NCBI GenBank assembly: GCA_030264375.1
Contig: JASCQW010000162.1
Span: 94,311,352 to 94,375,351, forward strand
DNA: 64,000 nt
Source of the DNA: Carcharhinus longimanus
Lineage: Eukaryota
Reading direction: 5' to 3'
Below are positions 45,981 to 59,865 of this stretch, one piece after another. Position numbers and translations under genes: made by a program. The notes beneath the pieces are model-generated. The model worked only from the letters and a program-made list of their open reading frames with translations. It did no database searches and was not told the DNA's origin. The stretch's first letter is position 1. Every line of letters starts with the position of its first letter.

Positions 45981-46904
45981 CAGACATAAACAAAAAATAA
46001 AATAAAGAAATGGTGTTGGAACAGCTGCAATAATGCATATCTAGAAATGATTACAAACTAGTAATAATATCAGCATTTTGTCAACTGAAATTTAAAAGCA
46101 GGTTGTGATCACCCCAGGGCATCTGCTATCTCTATAATACCTGTGGAAATTATTTATTTTCATAGCGGGGATCCTTATTTAGTTTCAATGCTTCTGAAGT
46201 GTCATGTGATAATCTCCACCTTGAACTATTTATGATTAGAATGCAGCCATTAGACCATGAATAGATTAATTATAAGAAAATAATGCAATTTGTCATGAAA
46301 ACTGCATTTTGCAGGATAGTTATGTTTTAAAATATACCCTTTAATTTAAGGTGAATTAGATCCTTCTGAAAAAGAGGGATGGTGAATTCTGAATAAACAC
46401 CTCTGTTCAGAGCCAGGTTCATGTCATCTTGTTGCCATGGAAAGAAAAACACGAGCTGAAACACATTAATGCACCAGGTGCAAGCTTTAACACCTTTATT
46501 CGATATCTTGTAGAAAAGGGAGAGTTGTTTTGAGAGAGTGGAGACAAAGAAGCTACTGCTGTGGTGAAGCAGGTGAATTGTTTTGTGTTAACAACCAAGC
46601 AGGATGTTTGTGAGAGTTATGTTTCTGTTAAAAAGAAGGGAACAGCATTGCTGAGTCTCTTGGAGATTGAGAAATTTACCATAGTCGAGGGGTGCCTTGT
46701 TGGTGATGATTGGATCTGAAAATCTCAGGCTGAGTGGAATAATTATCAAAAGAAACAAAGTTTCAACCTCCTTTGCTGGAGAGAAGTGAACCTGTTGGTG
46801 AGCTATGATACATTATGGGATTGTTCCTGTAATGCTACATATTTGTCAGAAGCAAGGTGTTGCATAAGAGTATTTGAGACATATTTGAGTTGTGTCAGTT
46901 AATG

Positions 46905-47029
46905 CTCGGCCTTTTGGCTAAGATCAAGTGTAGTATTGACATGGTGCACTTGGGTGAAGTCATTAGGTTACATTTTAGTTTCATTTGAAGTAATTTTTTA
47001 AAGTGGCATCTTGGCCTTTTGGCTAAGAT
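46905..47029 (+). pseudogene. Two U2 snRNA 5' fragments heading an unclassified repeat
   Basis: 46905-46936 CTCGGCCTTTTGGCTAAGATCAAGTGTAGTAT matches U2 nt ~8-39, including the branch-pairing GTAGTA; 47009-47029 is a second, shorter copy. Confidence 0.85.
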
Positions 47030-48003
47030 GCAAATTAGATCAAGCCTTGGAGGAGGAGCTATGCCTATTCCAAACAGCTTGGATCATGTAGATCAAGCCC
47101 AAGACAGGAGGTGAGAGCCCTGTCTTGTCAGCTTGGATCGGGAATNNNNNNNNNNNNNNNNNNNNNNNNNNNNNNNNNNNNNNNNNNNNNNNNNNNNNNN
47201 NNNNNNNNNNNNNNNNNNNNNNNNNNNNNNNNNNNNNNNNNNNNNNNNNNNNNNNNNNNNNNNNNNNNNNNNNNNNNNNNNNNNNNNNNNNNNNNNNNNN
47301 NNNNNNNNNNNNNNNNNNNNNNNNNNNNNNNNNNNNNNNNNNNNNNNNNNNNNNNNNNNNNNNNNNNNNNNNNNNNNNNNNNNNNNNNNNNNNNNNNNNN
47401 NNNNNNNNNNNNNNNNNNNNNNNNNNNNNNNNNNNNNNNNNNNNNNNNNNNNNNNNNNNNNNNNNNNNNNNNNNNNNNNNNNNNNNNNNNNNNNNNNNNN
47501 NNNNNNNNNNNNNNNNNNNNNNNNNNNNNNNNNNNNNNNNNNNNNNNNNNNNNNNNNNNNNNNNNNNNNNNNNNNNNNNNNNNNNNNNNNNNNNNNNNNN
47601 NNNNNNNNNNNNNNNNNNNNNNNNNNNNNNNNNNNNNNNNNNNNNNNNNNNNNNNNNNNNNNNNNNNNNNNNNNNNNNNNNNNNNNNNNNNNNNNNNNNN
47701 NNNNNNNNNNNNNNNNNNNNNNNNNNNNNNNNNNNNNNNNNNNNNNNNNNNNNNNNNNNNNNNNNNNNNNNNNNNNNNNNNNNNNNNNNNNNNNNNNNNN
47801 NNNNNNNNNNNNNNNNNNNNNNNNNNNNNNNNNNNNNNNNNNNNNNNNNNNNNNNNNNNNNNNNNNNNNNNNNNNNNNNNNNNNNNNNNNNNNNNNNNNN
47901 NNNNNNNNNNNNNNNNNNNNNNNNNNNNNNNNNNNNNNNNNNNNNNNNNNNNNNNNNNNNNNNNNNNNNNNNNNNNNNNNNNNNNNNNNNNNNNNNNNNN
48001 NNN

Positions 48004-48380: not shown

Positions 48381-49515
48381 GGAAGAAGGGAATGGTGGTG
48401 CAGAGAGCAAGGGGGAAGTTCCCTTTGCAACCGAGGTTAGGGAAAGGCTGGTGGTGGCAAAACTTCGAGTATTTCATGTTTTTCCCTGATTATAACATAA
48501 CAAAATGAGAACTGGCTGAAGTCCAAATATTACCACTGATATCCAATTGCCAGTGAAAACACAGCCAACACAGGAAGGAAAGAATGTCATGTCTTCTTGA
48601 GTTCTCTACCTAAAGGCAGTCCAACCCGTGGCACCATGACCTCCACCATAGGAGGCAGGTCCCAAATCTACCCCAGCCAGAACATGGGCATGCTGGGGAT
48701 CATGAAGGAGGATCCAATGGGGAAGCCCCAGTGCCCCTATACTGGCAATCCATGTCGTGGACGAGGTGGAGAAACGAGGTGGAGGGTCCCGATGTCTGTG
48801 GGAGGAGGGAGACTCTGCACTGTGAGATTTTAAAAAGGCACCCAGTCACTTTGCAGCAGGGCTCACCAGCATGTTTAAGTGCCGTTCCTCCTGAACCATA
48901 GGGTACAACTCGCCACACTCCCAAAAAATGACTATGTGTGGGACGATTGCAGTCCAGACCACACCTTACAGACCGCATGGATTGCTCCAGTCTTCTCACC
49001 ATTATGACACTTTGTTTATTTTTGGAAAAACCACAGCCATTGTCCAGGAACCATTTGCTATGCACATTGTTACTTTCACTGCACTAATACCTGGAAGAAA
49101 AATATGCGGAAACTCCAGATCGCTGGGTTTCTTCATATTCTCTTAAAAATATGCATGTTGGTCAATGATACTTTTTCAAAGCCTTCGTCAACTTATTTTT
49201 AAAAATACCTAAGTGTCACTAGAGTTTGCGCAAACTGTCGAACATGCTGTTAGAACACCTCAGCATGTTTGATGGCGTTGGTATTAATTTGCTGTTGTTT
49301 AATCCAACTGATGTTGAACACATTTGAACACGGAGAACATTTCCATTGTTCTTATTCTGCTNNNNNNNNNNNNNNNNNNNNNNNNNNNNNNNNNNNNNNN
49401 NNNNNNNNNNNNNNNNNNNNNNNNNNNNNNNNNNNNNNNNNNNNNNNNNNNNNNNNNNNNNACGGATAACATTTCCATTGTTCTTATTCTGCTATTTTTA
49501 TGTATTTGCATTCAG

Positions 49516-49636
49516 ACTTGCAACAGTGACCAACAATGCAGAGGAGGCCAGTGTTGTGCTGCCTCTCTGTGAATTCAGAATCTCCATGTGTATCTTGGGC
49601 AATGAGGGGGACGAATGCCATTCTCTGAGTCACCAA
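49516..49636 (+). pseudogene. PROK2: Prokineticin (PROK2/Bv8-like) pseudogene, exon 2
   Basis: Bounded by TTCAG| and |GTTAG (phase 0); reads TCNSDQQCRGGQCCAASL*IQNL, frameshift, MCILGNEGDECHSLSHQ, versus prokineticin ACxxDxQCGGGxCCAVSLWIxxLRMCTPMGxxGDECHPLSHK. 121 bp vs the expected 126 bp. The family call is firm; the PROK2 paralog label is tentative. Confidence 0.88.
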
Positions 49637-51211
49637 GTTAGCATCTTTAAGTTTTTATGCCAGATGAGAGTTGGTAAGTTAGAGAAATAATGCATGAAAG
49701 TGCACAGTTATTAGTGAGATTTCTTAATATCTGCCATAATTGTGGCATTTTTCATTGATTTATTTACAGTTTGCACTATGTTTAACTGTAAATATATCAG
49801 TAGAGCACATTACAAGAAATGTTGATTTTAAATATCAGTAAAAATACAAATTAACACCTTTAAGAACGTACGTCTTTATTTATAATACGCAAACATTGCA
49901 ATGCTTTTAGCCCTCGGACGACAAGGAAATTCTTGTATCTTTGTGCTGGGCATTTTTGTAAGTTTTCAGCTTAATCACAAAATGGATGTTGCTGAATAAA
50001 ACATTAATAATACAGCAATAAAGCTACTCACATATCAGAAATGGCTTCAGTGCTGTTACATTAAGGCTAAAACTGAAAAGTACCATTTCATGATATTAAA
50101 AATCTTGCATGCGGCACATACTTCATGTGAATTTAGCAATATCTATCACACTTTTTGTGCCCTCACACTTTCTCCCTCTACTTTTCTGACTCACTGTGAA
50201 CAATGCCTTGGGAGTCTGTTAGTGTTATTAATAATACAATATAAACACTTCAGATTTGGTTGCTCTGAGCCATTTGCTTTCAATCCTCCCCATCCTTTTG
50301 CATTTNNNNNNNNNNNNNNNNNNNNNNNNNNNNNNNNNNNNNNNNNNNNNNNNNNNNNNNNNNNNNNNNNNNNNNNNNNNNNNNNNNNNNNNNNNNNNNN
50401 NNNNNTTCAATCCTCCCCATGCTTTTTCATTTCAAATTTTAGCTTTAGTCTCTTTTGTTGAATTTATACTTCTCTATGACAAAAACAAAAAGGGAAACCG
50501 ATAGATGTAAACTCATTGTTAGCATGCAGGAAAAAGTACACGCAGGGGAGAACTTTGATATTTTAAAATATAACATATCACAGGGGACCCCATGATGTAT
50601 TAAATCTTAAAATATCAAATGCTGAAAAACAATTTTACAAGATACTTCAAGAATACGCACTGTTTCATACAATTTCAAATAGCATTAAATCATTTATGGG
50701 AACATTTTTGAATTCAGTACCATTAAAGAATTCTCCCTACGTAGTCAGTCCAGGATATGAAGTGGCCTGAATTTGCTTTAATTTATTCCAGGCTTGTCTC
50801 AATTTGAACCATTTTAAGGTCGTATATATTTGACTCCTCTAAAAAAAACCGAAAGTCACAACTCAGAGGAGAGAAGGGAAGATGGGAGGGAGAGAAAATT
50901 ATTTTAGAAAGATTTTTTTTCTCTAAGGATGCAATCATGAGCTTAAATACAGAGGTTATAGTGACACATGCATGGAGACAAATGCTGGGAACTGTTTTGT
51001 AATTTGCAGCATATTAAGTGAATCATACAACCATTGTGTAGGAGGCAAACTTGAATTTATTTTAACAGCTCCAGAATAAATGTAGGATTTTTGCACAATC
51101 CCAAACATATGAGTGCATCTGTAATTCAAATTTGTGGATACTTCATCAATTTTTTTGAAACTTTACGAACCTAAATACATTTCAATACTTGTTCTGTAAG
51201 TTAAAACAAGA

Positions 51212-51562
51212 TCATGGAATCCCTACAGTGCAGCAGAGGACATTTGGCCTATCAAGTCAGCACTGAATCTGACAGAGTATCTTACCCAGACCTCGAGGTC
51301 TCCCATCTTTTCCCTGTAACCCCAGACATTAATCATGGATAAGCTATCTTAGTGTCCACCTTGGGACACTAAAGGGCTATTTAGCATGGCTGATCCACTT
51401 AACCTGCACATCTTTGGACCGTGGGAGTAAACCAGATTACCCAGAGGAAACCTACATAGACATGGGGAGAATGTGCAAACTCCACACAGTCATCCAAGGC
51501 CGAAATTGAAGTCAGGTACTGGAGCTGTGAGGCAGCAGTGCTGAACACTGTGCCATTGTGCC
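51212..51562 (-). mobile_element. HE1/V-SINE-type SINE
   Basis: Full head, V-domain and tail on the minus strand. Confidence 0.8.
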
Positions 51563-53569
51563 TTTTTTTAAACACAGTTATCTTTGATATGTTGCTTTGT
51601 TAGTTTTACTTACTTTAGGCATTTATCCCTACGAAGCTGTCATTTCCTAGTTACTCATAGAAAAACAACAAAGTTAAATCAGAGGAGAACCAGAGTCCTA
51701 AGACCCGGGTTTTGACAATTTTGTGGACAATTCATGACAATCATTTCTCTATCAAGTGGCACATATCATCCAGGCTATGCATGACAATATTTGATTGGGT
51801 GGCATTAGCAGGCTGACTTCCATAGGAAGCTCCTGCAAAGGCCTCATACAGCGCACATAACCACAACATATTGACAGAATGGTGACAATCCAATTGATAG
51901 CACCCTGCACCTTTCTCTGAAAATTTTGCTCGTTTGCTTTCCATGTGGCTTCTACCCATGACAGCCATCCTTTGAACATATTCTGACTTGCTGCAGCTGC
52001 GGAGCTTTACTGTCGGAGTTAGCAGTTTGCGTAGGTTCAGAGATGACACACGAAAAGAACATTAGGTGACTTTGGTGGGATTAATATCTAAAATTCCTCC
52101 AGTTAATTAGCTACTAATGACCACGTTCTGACAAAAGGAGGGAGATATGGTTGATGCTGACAGCAGCCTGGCCAGTACCTCGAGCTGTTCTGACCTTCAT
52201 CATTGGAAGGCAGCAAGTTTAAATCTCAGGGATGTCTGTCACAGTTTTAGTTGTTTGTGTCAGGCATCAGGTGGATCAATAGTCCAATTCAAAGGCAATA
52301 TATTAATCTCTCCCATTCTCTTAATAATCTACATAAAAAGCAGTAATATTCATTTTAAATATGTAGGAATGGGTGTGCATTTTTACTAATGGTAAGTGCT
52401 ATCTATTGGGGTAAATTTTCCCATCTTGTACTCTCAGCAGGGAGCCAAGCTCAAAAGACTATCAGAAATAGCTTTACAGTTCTGCATTGCTGATTTCTTT
52501 TGACCGTGCTTCCTTTCAACACACATTTCCACTGGAAATGTAGGTTCATGAATTTATCCCTAACTACTCCTTTTAGGCTCCCTTTCTCATGAGATGCCAA
52601 GCAAAAGCATCCTGTTTATTAATCCCATCAAGCACATCTATGTACAGTATCCACTGCTGCAATAATGGACTTGGACTCACCTAATTCTTTCACTTTTAAA
52701 ATGGTGTGATACAGGTTGCATTTCCACAAGGAATAATTTTAATGACAAATTAGTATGAATCATACAAATGATACAGAGGATATGTTCAGCTGCAGAATAT
52801 TAAGCATCTCAACTAAAACAAGCTGTTACCAATTAGTTTCAGATTCAAGTGGTGCCCTTAGCATCTTCTCCTCAATAAATTGAAAGATTTTTCTTAGAAA
52901 TTAAGATGAAAGTATTTGGTCAGTCATTAGATATTTCTTTTTTGTAACAAAAATAACTTTACAGTGATTTTTATTTCAACTGCTACCTTTGCACTGCTTA
53001 AATATCTACTACAACTATAGTCAAAGCTGTAACTCATCTAATTGTTTATTCAATAACAGGAGGCAAGTAAATAATGAATTCATTTAAACAAATTAATACA
53101 ATCTATAACACTGTGTATTTTGGCGCACGGCTTGTGCATTCTTGCTAACAAGAAAATCTATGGAAATCAGCTTCACTTTTTGTATGGTTCCCAAAGATTA
53201 GCCTAATGGAAACATGCAACAAAGAACAGTTCATTGAATCATTCCTGAAATAGTAACAGTAGGTCTTTCATCTAACAATATTTCAGGCAGCATTTTGAGT
53301 TATGCCTTCAGGAAGACAGAAAATCACTTCACATTCACAGAGAGATAAAGGCCACTAGCTAACAACTTTAAGAGTGATTTTAGAGTAAGGCTGTTATTTT
53401 TATCTGGTCAAATATAAATAAGCAGGTCTGTGGATAATTTATGATGAAGAAACCTACTTTTGGAATACTGAAACAACTCCTTTTTTGGTCAACATGCATA
53501 CAGTCTTTAGAAGCTGAGTTTAAATAGGCAAGCCTTCTTGTTGTGCAACTCACATCCACAGGACTGTGA

Positions 53570-53890
53570 TCATAGAATCACTATAATGCAGAAGGAGGCC
53601 ATTCGGCCCAATGAGCCTATACTGATAAAATCCCACTGAGGGCCCTATTCTTGTAACCCAATGCACTTACCTTACTAGTCCCCTGACACTAAGGGGCAAC
53701 TTAGCATGGCCAATCCACTTCACTTGCATATCTTTGGACTTTGGGAGGAAACCGGAGCACCCAGATGTAACACATGCAGACTTCGCAAATGTGCAAATGC
53801 CACACAAACAGTCACCCAAGGCCAGAATTGAACCTGGATTCCTGGCGCTGTGTGAGGAGGCAGTGTTAAGCACTGTGCCACCGTGCCATG
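53570..53890 (-). mobile_element. HE1/V-SINE-type SINE
   Basis: Full head, V-domain and tail on the minus strand. Confidence 0.8.
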
Positions 53891-54074
53891 GTAAGATGTA
53901 AAATCGAATGCAATCAATCATCAATCTAGGTTAAAGTGGGCCAGGATAATGCAAACAATCAATCACTGGTACCTTACAATATCACCTTGAAACATACTCA
54001 TCATATTCAAAAATGGTTATTTGTTTTCCAGTGGCCATTCACAACCTCACACAATCAGGAAAACATTACAAGTA

Positions 54075-55110
54075 TATAGATTATACTGTACAGACACAGG
54101 CCATTAACCCAGCCACTCCATACCAGTGTTTGCACTGCACCTGAGCCTCCTCCTGTTTATCCCCATCTAACTCTTCTAGCCTTGCCTTAAATGCATCTAA
54201 ATCATTCAGGTCAACCATTCCCTGTGGTAGCAGGTTCCACAGTCTCACCACTTTCTGGGTAAAGAGGTTTCTTGTGAATTCCCAGTTTCATTTCTTGGTG
54301 ATTATCTTATGTCGATAACTGTAAGTCTTACTTCCCTCTACAAATGGGAACATCCTCCCTGTGTCTACTCTATCAAAATCTTTCATAATTTTGAGATGTC
54401 TATTAGGTCACCACTCATCCTGTTCTTTACAAACGAAAACCTGTTCATCCTCTCCATATGAAAACCTGTTCATCCTCTCTGCCTATTTTCTGATATCCTA
54501 CTGGTAAATCTTTTTGTAGCCTCTTCAGTGCCTTTGTATCTTTTTTTATATAATAAACAAGCAGAATTTTGCACCATTCTCCAGGTGCTCTCCAACCAAT
54601 ATTCCATACAGGGGTTTAGCATCATTTCTTTACTTTTCCACTCTTCCTCTAGGAATAAACCCAAGTGTAAGATTTACTTTTAATGGCCTTGGTAACCTTT
54701 GTCATTACTTTTATTTGTGCTCCTAGATCCCTTTGCTCCTCTACCCCATTTAGATTCTATGGACGGGATTCTCTGGTCTTGTCCTTGGTGGGGCCCATTG
54801 CTGGTGAGAACGGAGAATTTGGTGTTCCAGTCAAAGCTCTATTCACTTTCAGCAGCATCGGAAAATCTCAGCCACGAACAAGGATGGAGATTTCAGCAAC
54901 CTCCTTACTTTTATTACCAACATATAATACATTATGTTTATCTATATTGAAATTAATTTGCCAATTGTATGCCAGTTCTGCAAGTTTGTTCATATCTTTT
55001 TGTAATTTGCTGTTCCTCAGTACTGAGTATGTTCCCCAATTTGGTGTCATCTACAAATTGAAATATTCTATTTTTGATTCCAAACTCTAGTCATTGATAT
55101 AAATTGTAAT
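54075..55110 (-). mobile_element. Decayed CR1 LINE 3' region (small MITE at ~54761-54898)
   Basis: ..KLQKDMNKLAELAYNWQINFNIDK..; CR1 3' UTR-like sequence at 54075-54420. Confidence 0.75.
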
Positions 55111-55974
55111 TTATATCAAAACATTGACAAACCTGGCTGCACTAAGATTGGGGCGCCATCTATACAGGGTGCCCAAACATAATAGGAATAAACCTCCACC
55201 CCACAGCTCACCATGGATGTCTCAGAGGCNNNNNNNNNNNNNNNNNNNNNNNNNNNNNNNNNNNNNNNNNNNNNNNNNNNNNNNNNNNNNNNNNNNNNNN
55301 NNNNNNNNNNNNNNNNNNNNNNNNNNNNNNNNNNNNNNNNNNNNNNNNNNNNNNNNNNNNNNNNNNNNNNNNNNNNNNNNNNNNNNNNNCCCTCATCAGC
55401 CATCACATGTTCCCCCACTCACTCCCAGACAACAACCAAATCTGAATGAATCCCCCTGCTCCTCTCCATGAGGCTTCCATTGGGGACCGCCTCATGGCAC
55501 AGATTGGCACTGCTGGGTTGACATGGGCATGATGTCAACCTAGGCCAAGGGGCTGTGCTAGAGCATAATGTTAGGCCAGTTTCTGGCCATGTCCCTCTCC
55601 CCCAGGGGCTGTATATACAGTTATGCTCCTGAAGAGAACCCCAAGACAGGTCCATATCGAGGTGACTCTGTTGTGAATGGCACTGGTGTGATGTCATACC
55701 AGCATCTGCTGAATATCCGGTGAGGGGGGCAAGTCCTGGAGAGAGTCCTCACTAATGACATGCTAGTGAGGGCCCTGTGTCGTGTTTGACGTTATTCTGC
55801 CGGCAAGGGAACTAGAAGATCGGAACTTGGAAATTTGCCAATGCGAATCATGCTTTTCAAGTGTTTCCAAATTTTGAGCACGGCCGTCATTCCCACAGAT
55901 AGAGAGCGTGGGCTCAAAATCACCCCCATTGTTTCATATTTCTACCATTTCTTTATCCCTCAGTTTCTATATTG

Positions 55975-56410
55975 TGCATTAGCCACAGCTGAGTTGGCAG
56001 CACTCCTGCATCTGAGTCAGATGGCTTGGGATCACGAGCCTGTCCAGGACACGAGTGCAATAAACCATGGCTAACATTTCAAATGTGGAATGAAGGGAAT
56101 GCTGCACAGTCAGAGATGTTGTCTATTCGACAAGATGTTAAACTAAGTTCCTCTCAGGTGAAATAAAAGATCCTGTGACACTATCTTCTGGAGCAGGCGA
56201 ATTCTTCCTCGTGTCCTGGACAATCTTTATCCCTAATCAATATCATAGAAACAGATTATTTAGTCAGTTACACATTGTGTTTGTGGGAGCTTGCTGGGAT
56301 CAAATAAGCTGCTGCATCTCCTACATCACAATAGTGACAACTTTTCCAAAGTACTCCACTGACCCTAAAGTATTTTGAGACATCTGGTGGTCATAATTGG
56401 TGTTATATAA
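55975..56410 (+). mobile_element. Deu-type SINE
   Basis: TCTGAGTCAGA head, CTCTCAGGTG..AAAGATCC, GTGTCCTGGACAAT and ACAGATTATTTAGTCA. Confidence 0.65.
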
Positions 56411-59400
56411 GCAAAAATGTTTATTCCCCCATCTCTTTTATCGTGTTTATATTACCTTGTTTTTCATCGAATAACCCTATTCTCATCATGATTTTCGCTT
56501 CTTCATTTATGTGCCTGTAAAATATTTTACTATTCTGCTTTATGTTCCTTGATAATTTAATTTCATAGTCCTTCCTTGTCCTTTTTTTGATGCCTCCTCT
56601 AATCTCTTCATATTAGCATTTATAATGCTTTCCCCTGCTGTTCATTTACTTGGGGTGTGATCTTACCAGAATGTGGCAGAATATTGATTCTGGCGAAAAG
56701 AATGGCATGCCTCATCCAGCTGGGTGTATTTCACTCTGTCAGTCAGGGGAATGGGGCCTCAACACGCCAGCAAAGACCAGCTGCACTGAGATCAGGATAT
56801 CATGTTTAAAGAACACATACACAAGTACATGAATGATCCTCTCCCCAGCCTGTCACTGCGGCCTCAGGGCCAACCTGACCCCTGACCCCTGACCCTTGAC
56901 CCTTGACACCTGAGCCCCAATCTGAGTTGGCACTCACTCTCCCCCCCATAACCACTCCCCTCCCCTTTGTCCCCCCCCCGCTCCTGATCAGAGCCGGCAC
57001 AAAGTCACCCTATCCCTTCACCCTATCAGAGTTGGTATTCCGCCTCTCTTTATCCCCATCTCTTAATTCTGGTCCTGTTTTCACAACTGAAATATTAAAA
57101 TATCCTTTCTGAGTGTGTTTTGTCTATTGCACATCAGAGTCAATCCTGATTCCTTTGTTCATTGGTGACTGACCAGACTTACCTGAGATAAACACTTGGA
57201 TGGAATCTTCCAGTCCCTCCCACTGTTGGGATTATCCAGTCCCATCAGGGTCAATAGACTTTTGAATGGCTTACCGCACTTGACCATCCTGCCCCACTGT
57301 AGTGGGGTCATAAAATTCCACCCGACCTTTCTCAGGTAAGTTTAGTTTTTGAAAGGTACTTGGTCTCTTCCTCTTTCTGACCAGCAGCCACAATGCATTT
57401 CCTGAGGCCTCACTCATGATTTGATAAGGAACTGAATTTTCACTGGATTTTGTATGTAGGATTTTGTATGTGAGTTTCTCAAAAAAAATTTCCTTTAAAA
57501 AATGTGGTTATTTTCAGGATTGGTTAAATTTGTTGCTTTATGTCAATATGTTTATCCACAAATCTGAATACAATAAACAAGCAGTACTAGTTCAGAACAA
57601 CTGGACACTGTTCTGTTGTGTAGTCATGGTTTGGAGGGAGGCTTCAGGGATTGTCTGTCCTCCCAAAGTATACTGTTTGAGTCTCTAGTTTCTCAAAACC
57701 ATTACCCATTTATTTCCAGTAAGTAGTTACCACATTTGGGCCTCTAAATAAGGTTCTCATTCCTGATCTCTCTTACTTGACAGGCGTATGATCTGACACC
57801 ATTATTACATCAGAATATATATGTTAACTCTTTATTCTGAAGATATTGTAAGTTGCAATAATGGAGTGGAATTAATATATAAGTGCAAGGTTGGGCACAA
57901 AACATCTTTGATGTTCTGAGGGCTAACCCTAAGGTTTCAATTCATGTTCCTGATTAACAGAATTCATTAATCTACCAGTGAACACAGAATTAGCGAGAGA
58001 TAAAAGTGAATGTGGAGCATAGAATTCCAACTTTCGTGTTGAAAGAAACAGACCAAAGAACTTGTGTTTAAAAAGTTATGGCAAGAAACAATGATGTGTG
58101 TAGATCAATTAAAAATGTTTGGATTTAATCAAGAATCATTTTGAAGAATGTACATAAAGCACACAAAATCAGGTTATCAGTTTTTTAATTGATTAATTGT
58201 TTTTTGCTCCTTTTTATATATGATCTGATATTTGTGGAATCGTGAAGGTGTTAGGGGTAATCAAAAATTACTCAAGATTCGGAAAACTGAGAGCTTCCCC
58301 TCCCCCCATCCCCTGCACCTTCCCTTCCTCACCTTTAACAAATTCCATTTTAAACAGAAAACATCTTCTTTTTCAATTTTTTCCTCTGTTTCTGGTGAAT
58401 ATAGCCCTACAGCAGGAACCTGAATTAATTTAACATAAGTTGGCAATCACCCCCAGGGAGGTAACAATTTGGTTGGAAGTGGGATAAAAACCATTTGTTC
58501 CTGCAAGAGGTTGGTGTGAAATAGGCTATAAGGCCCAGACTTCCAACCCCTTGTCGAGTTTGCTATGTCAGGTGATTTCCCAGCTCAGTGAACCTGATGT
58601 TTAAAAGCGTCCCCCTGCAGGTCAGATATTTGGTGGTGGGATAGGGACTGAAACAGATGGCAGGAAAGGCAACCCCGGCACAAAAACATAGGCTGCTGGG
58701 CGTGTTTAAATAAATAGATCTGAATAAAACAAAAACATTTCTTCAGTCCTCATCCCCCTCACACCCTATACATTCCTGATAACAACTTACGCCAATCCAT
58801 GCCCCCCACGCACTTCGTCCATGTTCGTTGAACTGTTCCTTGACACCTTTGAATCTTTCTGGATACGTATGACAGTTTTAACACTTCCTTGAGAGATATG
58901 CCAGCTTTAAAACTTTCTGGACAACTTTGACAGGTTTGACAGTTGGAAAATTATTTAAGAGCTGGACAGTTCCATGACAGCTAGACAACCCTGTAACTGT
59001 TCCTTGAGAGCTGGACAGTTCTTTGCCAGGTTGAAAGTTTGAATGAATATTTTGTGCATAAAATGTGATATCTAAATGCACTCCCTAAGTTCAGACCTCC
59101 TCTTACCTGTTCTAATCTGTACACTCCAGATTCCTCACTCCTGTTCTGCCAAAATCCCCATTCAGAAGCAACAGCTGCCTTTACAAATTGCATATGCGCA
59201 AACCCTTGTCCAACTCTAGTCCAACCCGCTGAAACGATGGGAAATGCTGGGTTTGAGGGTGGAGCTTAGAAATTTCAGCCATTTCTGGATGAGCCTCTCC
59301 ATCTTGATGTAAATCCAGACTTAAAATGGTTTTACTTTACTGGTTGTCCATTAATGTCTGACCTTATTGTGTTTGACACTGATACTAAATGCCACAATTT

Positions 59401-59730
59401 TTTAAAAGTGTTAGCCCAGACCTGAAGCCATAAGATTTAATTCACTATATGGTCAAACAGACCAAGTTTATATATGTGTGAAATGTTCTATTTCCTATCA
59501 TTAATACTCAACACCTCTGTGCGCACAAAATTTACCAAACAGAAAAGGTAAATAAAAGTCCCTATAGAAAATCACTGAAGACTCATACTTTAGTTAAAAC
59601 AATTTTGAATGGTGTATAACTGAAGTATGGTATTTGTATTTCCATAAAAGGCAAGTTACAAACTACATTGAATAATTATTTATTGCAAGTGATAATGGTG
59701 CTTCAGCTGTCTGTTATTTATATGACAAAG

Positions 59731-59865
59731 GAAAATTTCCTCCCATCCGCTGGAAGACGAATACATCACAGATACCCTTGCTTGCCCAATTTTACTTGTG
59801 TGAGGTCTGGAGATGGCCAACACAGATGTTTATCATAGTTCAAATTGGAAGGTGTTTTCTTTTAG
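59731..59865 (+). pseudogene. PROK2: Prokineticin (PROK2/Bv8-like) pseudogene, terminal exon
   Basis: Reads (ENF)LPSAGRRIHHRYPCLPNFTCVRSGDGQHRCLS*FKLEGVFF*, versus VPFxGRRxHHTCPCLPxLxCxRxxxxRFxCL...; AATAAA at 59913-59918. The paralog label is tentative. Confidence 0.85.

Follow-up and report, generated by a model that had tools for sequence, protein, structure and literature searches.

The 64,000-nucleotide stretch of DNA analyzed here (the window; C162:94311352-94375351 in the Carcharhinus longimanus assembly GCA_030264375.1, from which all scaffold coordinates are taken) carries two decayed exons of a prokineticin gene. Very probably they are what is left of the true PROK2 gene, now dead, in its ancestral position. 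A retrocopy of the gene on another scaffold is stopped too, so that the lineage is likely to be without prokineticin-2 and to rely on an intact PROK1 acting via the same receptors.

Disabling lesions in two prokineticin exons

An earlier note on this DNA, made from its letters alone, had described two exons with the prokineticin pattern 10.1 kb apart on the + strand. Our searches bear this out. PF06607 Prokineticin was the only one of 24,736 Pfam families to match either exon piece at E-values up to 0.1 (exon 3 passed the cut-off with E 2.5e-6; the initial part of exon 2, with E 7.8e-4, narrowly missed it), and tblastn with catshark PROK2 as query matched exon 3 at E 1.9e-16 and exon 2 at E 1.4e-7. 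Exon 2 (49516..49636, + strand) retains the phase-0 boundaries reported in that note (AG at 49514-15, GT at 49637-38). It has 121 nucleotides (nt) instead of the family's 126 nt (42 codons), a net loss of 5 base pairs (bp). The earliest lesion seen is a TGA (49570..49572, + strand) where functional prokineticins have Trp24, a residue which, together with the N-terminal AVITG motif, is critical for receptor binding according to a review (PMC10595023). Comparison with contigs of sequencing runs places the frameshift region, with its net loss of 5 bp, at 49585..49594 (+ strand), and one of the ten Cys is lost there.

Exon 3 (59740..59865, + strand) ends at the normal stop (59863-65), preceded by an early TAG (59836-38) standing 3′ of the last Cys. 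A Cys-to-Tyr change at 59773-75, added to the Cys inside the frameshift, leaves 8 of the 10 Cys. In the acceptor region (59729..59739, + strand) an AG is missing directly before the first homologous codon; the nearest one, at 59729-30, is in frame and 9 nt upstream. Intron 2 (49637..59739, + strand; 10.1 kb) contains two small N gaps.

On the upstream side, 54 bp separate exon 2 from an assembly gap of 100 N with duplicated flanks (49362..49461; strand not applicable), so the lesions had to be checked in independent runs. Exon 2 was compared in four runs (X1, X11, X16, and X21), the evidence being one contig for each run with a depth of 5.6-19.7. Over the 301 bases from 49500 to 49800, the X1 contig shows no difference from the window. 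The other three come from three other organisms, with 8 (X11), 13 (X16), and 18 (X21) letters differing in 339 (up to 5% apart). The TGA is unchanged in 4/4 runs, so that the stop at Trp listed in the earlier note is verified at the level of run contigs. In the frameshift region X16 and X21 carry 5 more bases than the window and are in frame, X11 carries 4 more (−1), and X1 has the full loss (−5). The Trp24 stop is therefore older than the frameshift, and the latter grew stepwise. Reading contigs by hand showed a further stop of X21's own at 49534; among the contig loose ends, those of X16 carried the exon 3 flank without acceptor, and those of X7 the Tyr. Judging from these single contigs, with a depth of 2-23 overall and not raw reads, the disabling lesions are real and common to several organisms.

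Family identity and orthology

The match to PF06607 and the 42-codon phase-0 exon 2, in frame in X16 and X21, support descent from the prokineticin family. A Dickkopf or colipase-like identity was rejected, as no family besides PF06607 was returned for the two pieces; our tree had no Dickkopf rows. The degree of decay is considerable: 26 of the 80 scored relic residues (X at breaks) occur in none of ten intact shark PROK2 proteins, versus 0-5 for those ten in a leave-one-out comparison (Fisher p 1.6e-5). Identity to the nearest shark PROK2 is 64% over 78 columns.

On C162 the relic (94.36-94.37 Mb, +) is preceded by SHQ1 exons (93.12-93.14 Mb, +) and an RYBP-type exon (93.44 Mb, +) and followed by a GPR27-type gene (94.43 Mb, −) and FOXP exons (95.07-95.08 Mb, +). 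The GPR27-type frame is open over 376 codons, with GPR85 and GPR27 as the nearest protein clusters. We take RYBP to be distinguished from YAF2, and GPR27 from GPR85, by motifs presumed diagnostic; SHQ1, found on the C162 scaffold alone, does not rest on such motifs. The human order is FOXP1, EIF4E3, GPR27, PROK2, RYBP, SHQ1 (PMC5651901). Mammalian PROK2 (the Kallmann-syndrome gene, at 3p13) thus has the same neighbors in the same order, and it shares the 42-codon exon 2 and Trp24 (PMC10595023).

In a tree of 33 rows (30 hand-picked from protein searches and three sequences of our own), the window relic and the retrocopy fell on the PROK2 side, adjoining Scyliorhinus (87/88), and a gene on scaffold C142 on the PROK1 side, with a support of 100/99 for the split. 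The terminal branch of the window measured 0.61 versus at most 0.07 for the ten intact shark PROK2 rows. From the position between RYBP/SHQ1 and GPR27/FOXP, the placement on the PROK2 side, and the whole PROK1 elsewhere, we infer that the relic is the PROK2 orthologue. The earlier note had called it a non-processed PROK2 pseudogene in a shark, and this is supported. Of the two origins it left open, the lost orthologue holds, given synteny, tree, and PROK1, and the dead extra paralogue does not.

No intact PROK2 was found elsewhere. Besides the window exons, three genome searches recovered the retrocopy and PROK1 and nothing further; their counts are lower bounds, and one of the searches scored 150 of 909 candidates owing to a repeat in the N-terminal extension of the query.

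A stopped retrocopy on another scaffold

What the earlier note did not contain is an intronless PROK2 retrocopy (C98:47978916-47979450, − strand; L001). It has ~270 bp of 5′ leader, both exon junctions fused, one TGA, and an extra Gly codon. A poly-A is absent, likeness to the parent stops ~11 bases past the stop codon, and remnants of reverse transcriptase from long interspersed nuclear elements (LINEs) flank the copy on both sides. The retrocopy was present in 4/4 runs compared (X1, X7, X16, and X21). Its TGA is seen in the genome assembly and in X1, X16, and X21, that is in all three organisms where the codon is readable, and the reading frame is not open today. The retrocopy of this genome has 14/83 residues unseen in intact sharks; in the state common to X16 and X21 there are at most 5/83, an upper bound derived from the 40 of 110 difference rows listed. 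In X21 the signal peptide is longer by 15 bases, giving the family's 19 residues (by-hand count).

Motif, peptide, and DNA searches of the 169,516 bases before exon 2 (28,253 N) did not recover exon 1 of the parent gene, the exon which in functional prokineticins encodes the N-terminal AVITG motif with the signal peptide, and neither did a DNA search of the whole genome; all matches were at chance level, and gaps leave doubt. In X16 and in X21 another contig each spans 190 bases of the retrocopy leader, at ~85% identity, and we take it to be exon 1 of the parent PROK2. Such a contig is absent among those of X1 and X7; this is no proof of deletion, and a late deletion of exon 1 in the window's lineage is likely.

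The best local match to exon 1, near 46,890, was discarded as a fragment of U2 small nuclear RNA. This fragment (window 46898-47096, + strand; E 2.5e-7, 43.2 bits) lies below the gathering score of 46 and matches well only over its first ~39 bases; at gathering thresholds the window gave no Rfam match.

Order of events and past function of the retrocopy

The following order of events would account for these records. A germline transcript of the still-intact PROK2 would have been reverse-transcribed and inserted among the LINE remnants on C98. The parent, no longer needed, would then have decayed through the stop, the loss of the acceptor, and changes in about one third of its residues. Shortly before the sampled organisms split, the retrocopy would have gained its own stop. 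After the split, losses in the window's lineage would have comprised 5 bp of exon 2, 15 bp from the signal peptide of the retrocopy, and probably exon 1.

Two accounts of the retrocopy itself have to be weighed. The first, which we give somewhat less than an even chance, holds that it was never functional. It would be a late copy of a second intact PROK2 duplicate since vanished or unassembled, or its good state would reflect local rate differences and small numbers. The small number of changes, whatever their class, on the pre-split retrocopy lineage, the lack of poly-A, and the extra codon fit this account. So do strong differences in rate among lineages: at the 18 sites where this genome's retrocopy departs from the common state, the window agrees with the common state at 12 and with its own retrocopy at 3. 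Yet no third copy appeared in the genome searches and no third exon-2 contig in five runs. Moreover, synonymous changes should have accumulated in a ghost duplicate as well, and their low number (see below) is no better explained by one.

The second account, a refinement of our main explanation that we hold only tentatively, is that a working retrocopy freed the parent to decay and then died shortly before the sampled organisms split; function in the interval between the decay of the parent and the stop in the copy is equally tentative. In exon 2, the common state of the retrocopy has 2/37 new residues versus 12-13/37 in the parent (Fisher p 0.003-0.006), the parent count having been adjusted by hand by taking out one codon of the indel region and one change absent from X21. 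Parent and retrocopy had no lesion in common before the split. After it, the retrocopy locus was not slower to change than that of the parent (57/771 vs. 18/339 differences to X21, p 0.24). A copy that had been dead from the start would be expected to show no less decay than its parent, so these data suggest a working retrogene, and the complete signal peptide in X21 and the 5′ leader are consistent with it.

Against this stands the synonymous difference between the window and the common retrocopy state. It amounts to 8.5/49 sites (0.17), about the same as the non-synonymous value of 0.19, whereas 14-17 would be expected from two clock-like lineages (P 0.02-0.09). Past purifying selection on the retrocopy is thus favored by the amino-acid asymmetry and disfavored by the synonymous count. 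In addition, the rates of the lineages differ about fourfold, the extra Gly directly follows the N-terminal activating motif, and the gap total in X21 leaves no room for its absence. The residue comparison of the whole retrocopy draws on the listed difference rows, and the protein searches contained no intact retrogene protein.

Orphan retrogenes that replaced a lost parent, as described in PMC4772013 and PMC3548309, resemble the C98 case in the intronless copy located elsewhere, the parent decayed in place, and the copy nearer to the intact protein. Those retrogenes are open and expressed, whereas the C98 copy is stopped in the three readable organisms.

A unitary pseudogene is a lineage-specific gene loss. 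The window resembles such pseudogenes in its orthologous position, its fixed lesions, and the absence of a working copy from searches that give lower bounds. It differs from them in that the gene has left a second record, the processed copy, by which the steps can be put in order.

PROK1 and receptor genes

The three exons of PROK1 (C142:644759-662462; strand not given) are open and have proper splice ends. The mature protein matches that of Mustelus asterias at 81/82 residues, those of catsharks at 73-74, and those of rays at 68-69; together with the tree position of relic and retrocopy, this points to a ground shark outside the catsharks. Another FOXP gene lies at C142:1.36-1.37 Mb, 0.7 Mb from PROK1, and this proximity would fit PROK1 and PROK2 being a genome-duplication pair. 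A search for LAMTOR5 gave no match anywhere in the genome, and the PROK1 neighborhood is unconfirmed by that route.

Open first exons of prokineticin-receptor type were found at C132:126925137-126925631 and C61:116435002-116435475, and open second exons on C99 (~4.095 Mb) and C187 (~1.646 Mb, with a small N gap); the motifs by which we name them are presumed to be those of prokineticin receptors. No second exon was detected within 160 kb behind either first exon, and no first exon within ~65 kb before the second exons. The start-of-exon pattern occurred at 13 places, none of them on C132 or C61, and there was no prokineticin receptor among 18 solved-structure matches. The four loci are possibly the outcome of scaffold misjoins or possibly four partial loci. 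Both prokineticins activate both receptors (PMC10595023), and judging from this it is likely that PROK1, which is strongly conserved in this genome, covers for PROK2.

Other readings of the relic

It is improbable that the relic is a dead third prokineticin (a duplicate or ohnologue) with the real PROK2 elsewhere. Gaps could hide a tandem copy. However, the relic lies between RYBP/SHQ1 and GPR27/FOXP and is nested among shark PROK2 in the tree, the translated end of its intron and the N-terminus of the white-shark model of PROK2 agree at 13/18 residues (by-hand count), and PROK1 adjoins a FOXP gene of its own on C142. That the lesions are errors of assembly or sequencing near a contig end in an intact gene, as the gap with duplicated flanks could suggest, is extremely unlikely, given the agreement of X1 with the window, the stop kept in three other organisms, lesions in both exons 10 kb apart, and about one third of the residues differing from intact orthologues.

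Several points weigh against a dead PROK2 at its ancestral place. Only 4 of the 22 runs (from 12 studies) that cover part of the stretch were compared at exon 2, and with X1 as a possible source of the assembly itself, three of these count as independent. Contigs show presence and not absence, and the exon 3 relic was not recovered in X21. The window forms a long branch, and its placement beside Scyliorhinus has a support of 87/88 only. The assembly is gappy (see the N content upstream of exon 2), and as the genome searches give lower bounds, an intact copy could sit in a gap. The receptor exons on four scaffolds are not linked, and whole receptors are inferred. Finally, of the flanking genes by which the earlier note proposed to recognize the locus, RYBP and GPR27 are present, along with SHQ1 and FOXP, but EIF4E3 was not located: none of the 15 matches in a search for the EIF4E family adjoins GPR27.

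Between GPR27 and FOXP there is also an open single-exon forkhead frame of 303 codons (C162:94546450-94547358, + strand; L023; PF00250, E 8e-33), which is not in the human gene list of that interval.

Spread and meaning of the loss

Open PROK2-type models are available for ten shark species (two catsharks, five carpet sharks, the horn shark, a sawshark, and the white shark) and one ray. On the strength of these models, the loss is confined to a ground-shark clade and is not general to cartilaginous fish. The PROK2 of other sharks (Scyliorhinus canicula, P0007; S. torazame, P0006; Stegostoma, P0002; Chiloscyllium, P0004/P0009; Rhincodon, P0008; Hemiscyllium, P0011; Heterodontus, P0005; Pristiophorus, P0010; Carcharodon, P0012) is like the window copy in exon-2/exon-3 layout, Cys scaffold, and C-terminal tail. 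These models are open and have ten Cys and Trp24, whereas in the window copy there are two stops and a frameshift, two Cys are lost, an acceptor at the homologous place is missing, and exon 1 was not found.

For Mustelus, no PROK2 was seen among 3 hits and among the best 120 of 323, its PROK1 being present; this hints, though weakly, at the same loss in smooth-hounds. As for Mustelus asterias, PROK1 was retrieved for eight ray and chimaera species besides Narcine, with no PROK2 of theirs among the best 120 of 323 hits. Such hit lists of rays, chimaeras, and Mustelus may reflect further losses, missing annotation, or the word limit of the search. Three models lack a signal-peptide exon (white-shark and Hemiscyllium PROK2, P0012 and P0011; Mustelus PROK1, P0132), and the N-terminus of the white-shark PROK2 model is translated intron.

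In the review (PMC10595023), loss of mouse prokineticin-2 is described as causing small olfactory bulbs, fewer neurons producing gonadotropin-releasing hormone (GnRH), and failed sexual development, and PROK2 variants are reported in Kallmann syndrome. Here, the loss is common to a number of organisms, which evidently tolerate it. Three GnRH genes are retained in the catshark and the whale shark (PMC6135963). An earlier report of PROK2 loss was not found in the open literature; subscription papers and supplements, e.g., tables of shark gene loss, could hold one. The finding adds a new case to a known phenomenon, in which a single lineage loses a conserved neuro-hormone; its history possibly comprised two steps.

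We consider it rather doubtful, though conceivable, that such a history applies to a whole branch of ground sharks, with a retrogene taking over, the parent decaying, and the retrogene dying in turn. Olfactory bulbs, GnRH systems, and daily rhythms would then run on PROK1 alone, and earlier-branching relatives may still use the retrogene. If a retrogene did relieve the parent, the C98 copy would represent an orphan retrogene observed once it had itself died. Catsharks are laboratory animals, and a PROK2-less shark clade amounts to a natural knockout for which close relatives with the intact gene serve as controls. It makes testable whether PROK1 replaces PROK2 in the brain or whether these sharks need no such signal for olfactory and GnRH development.

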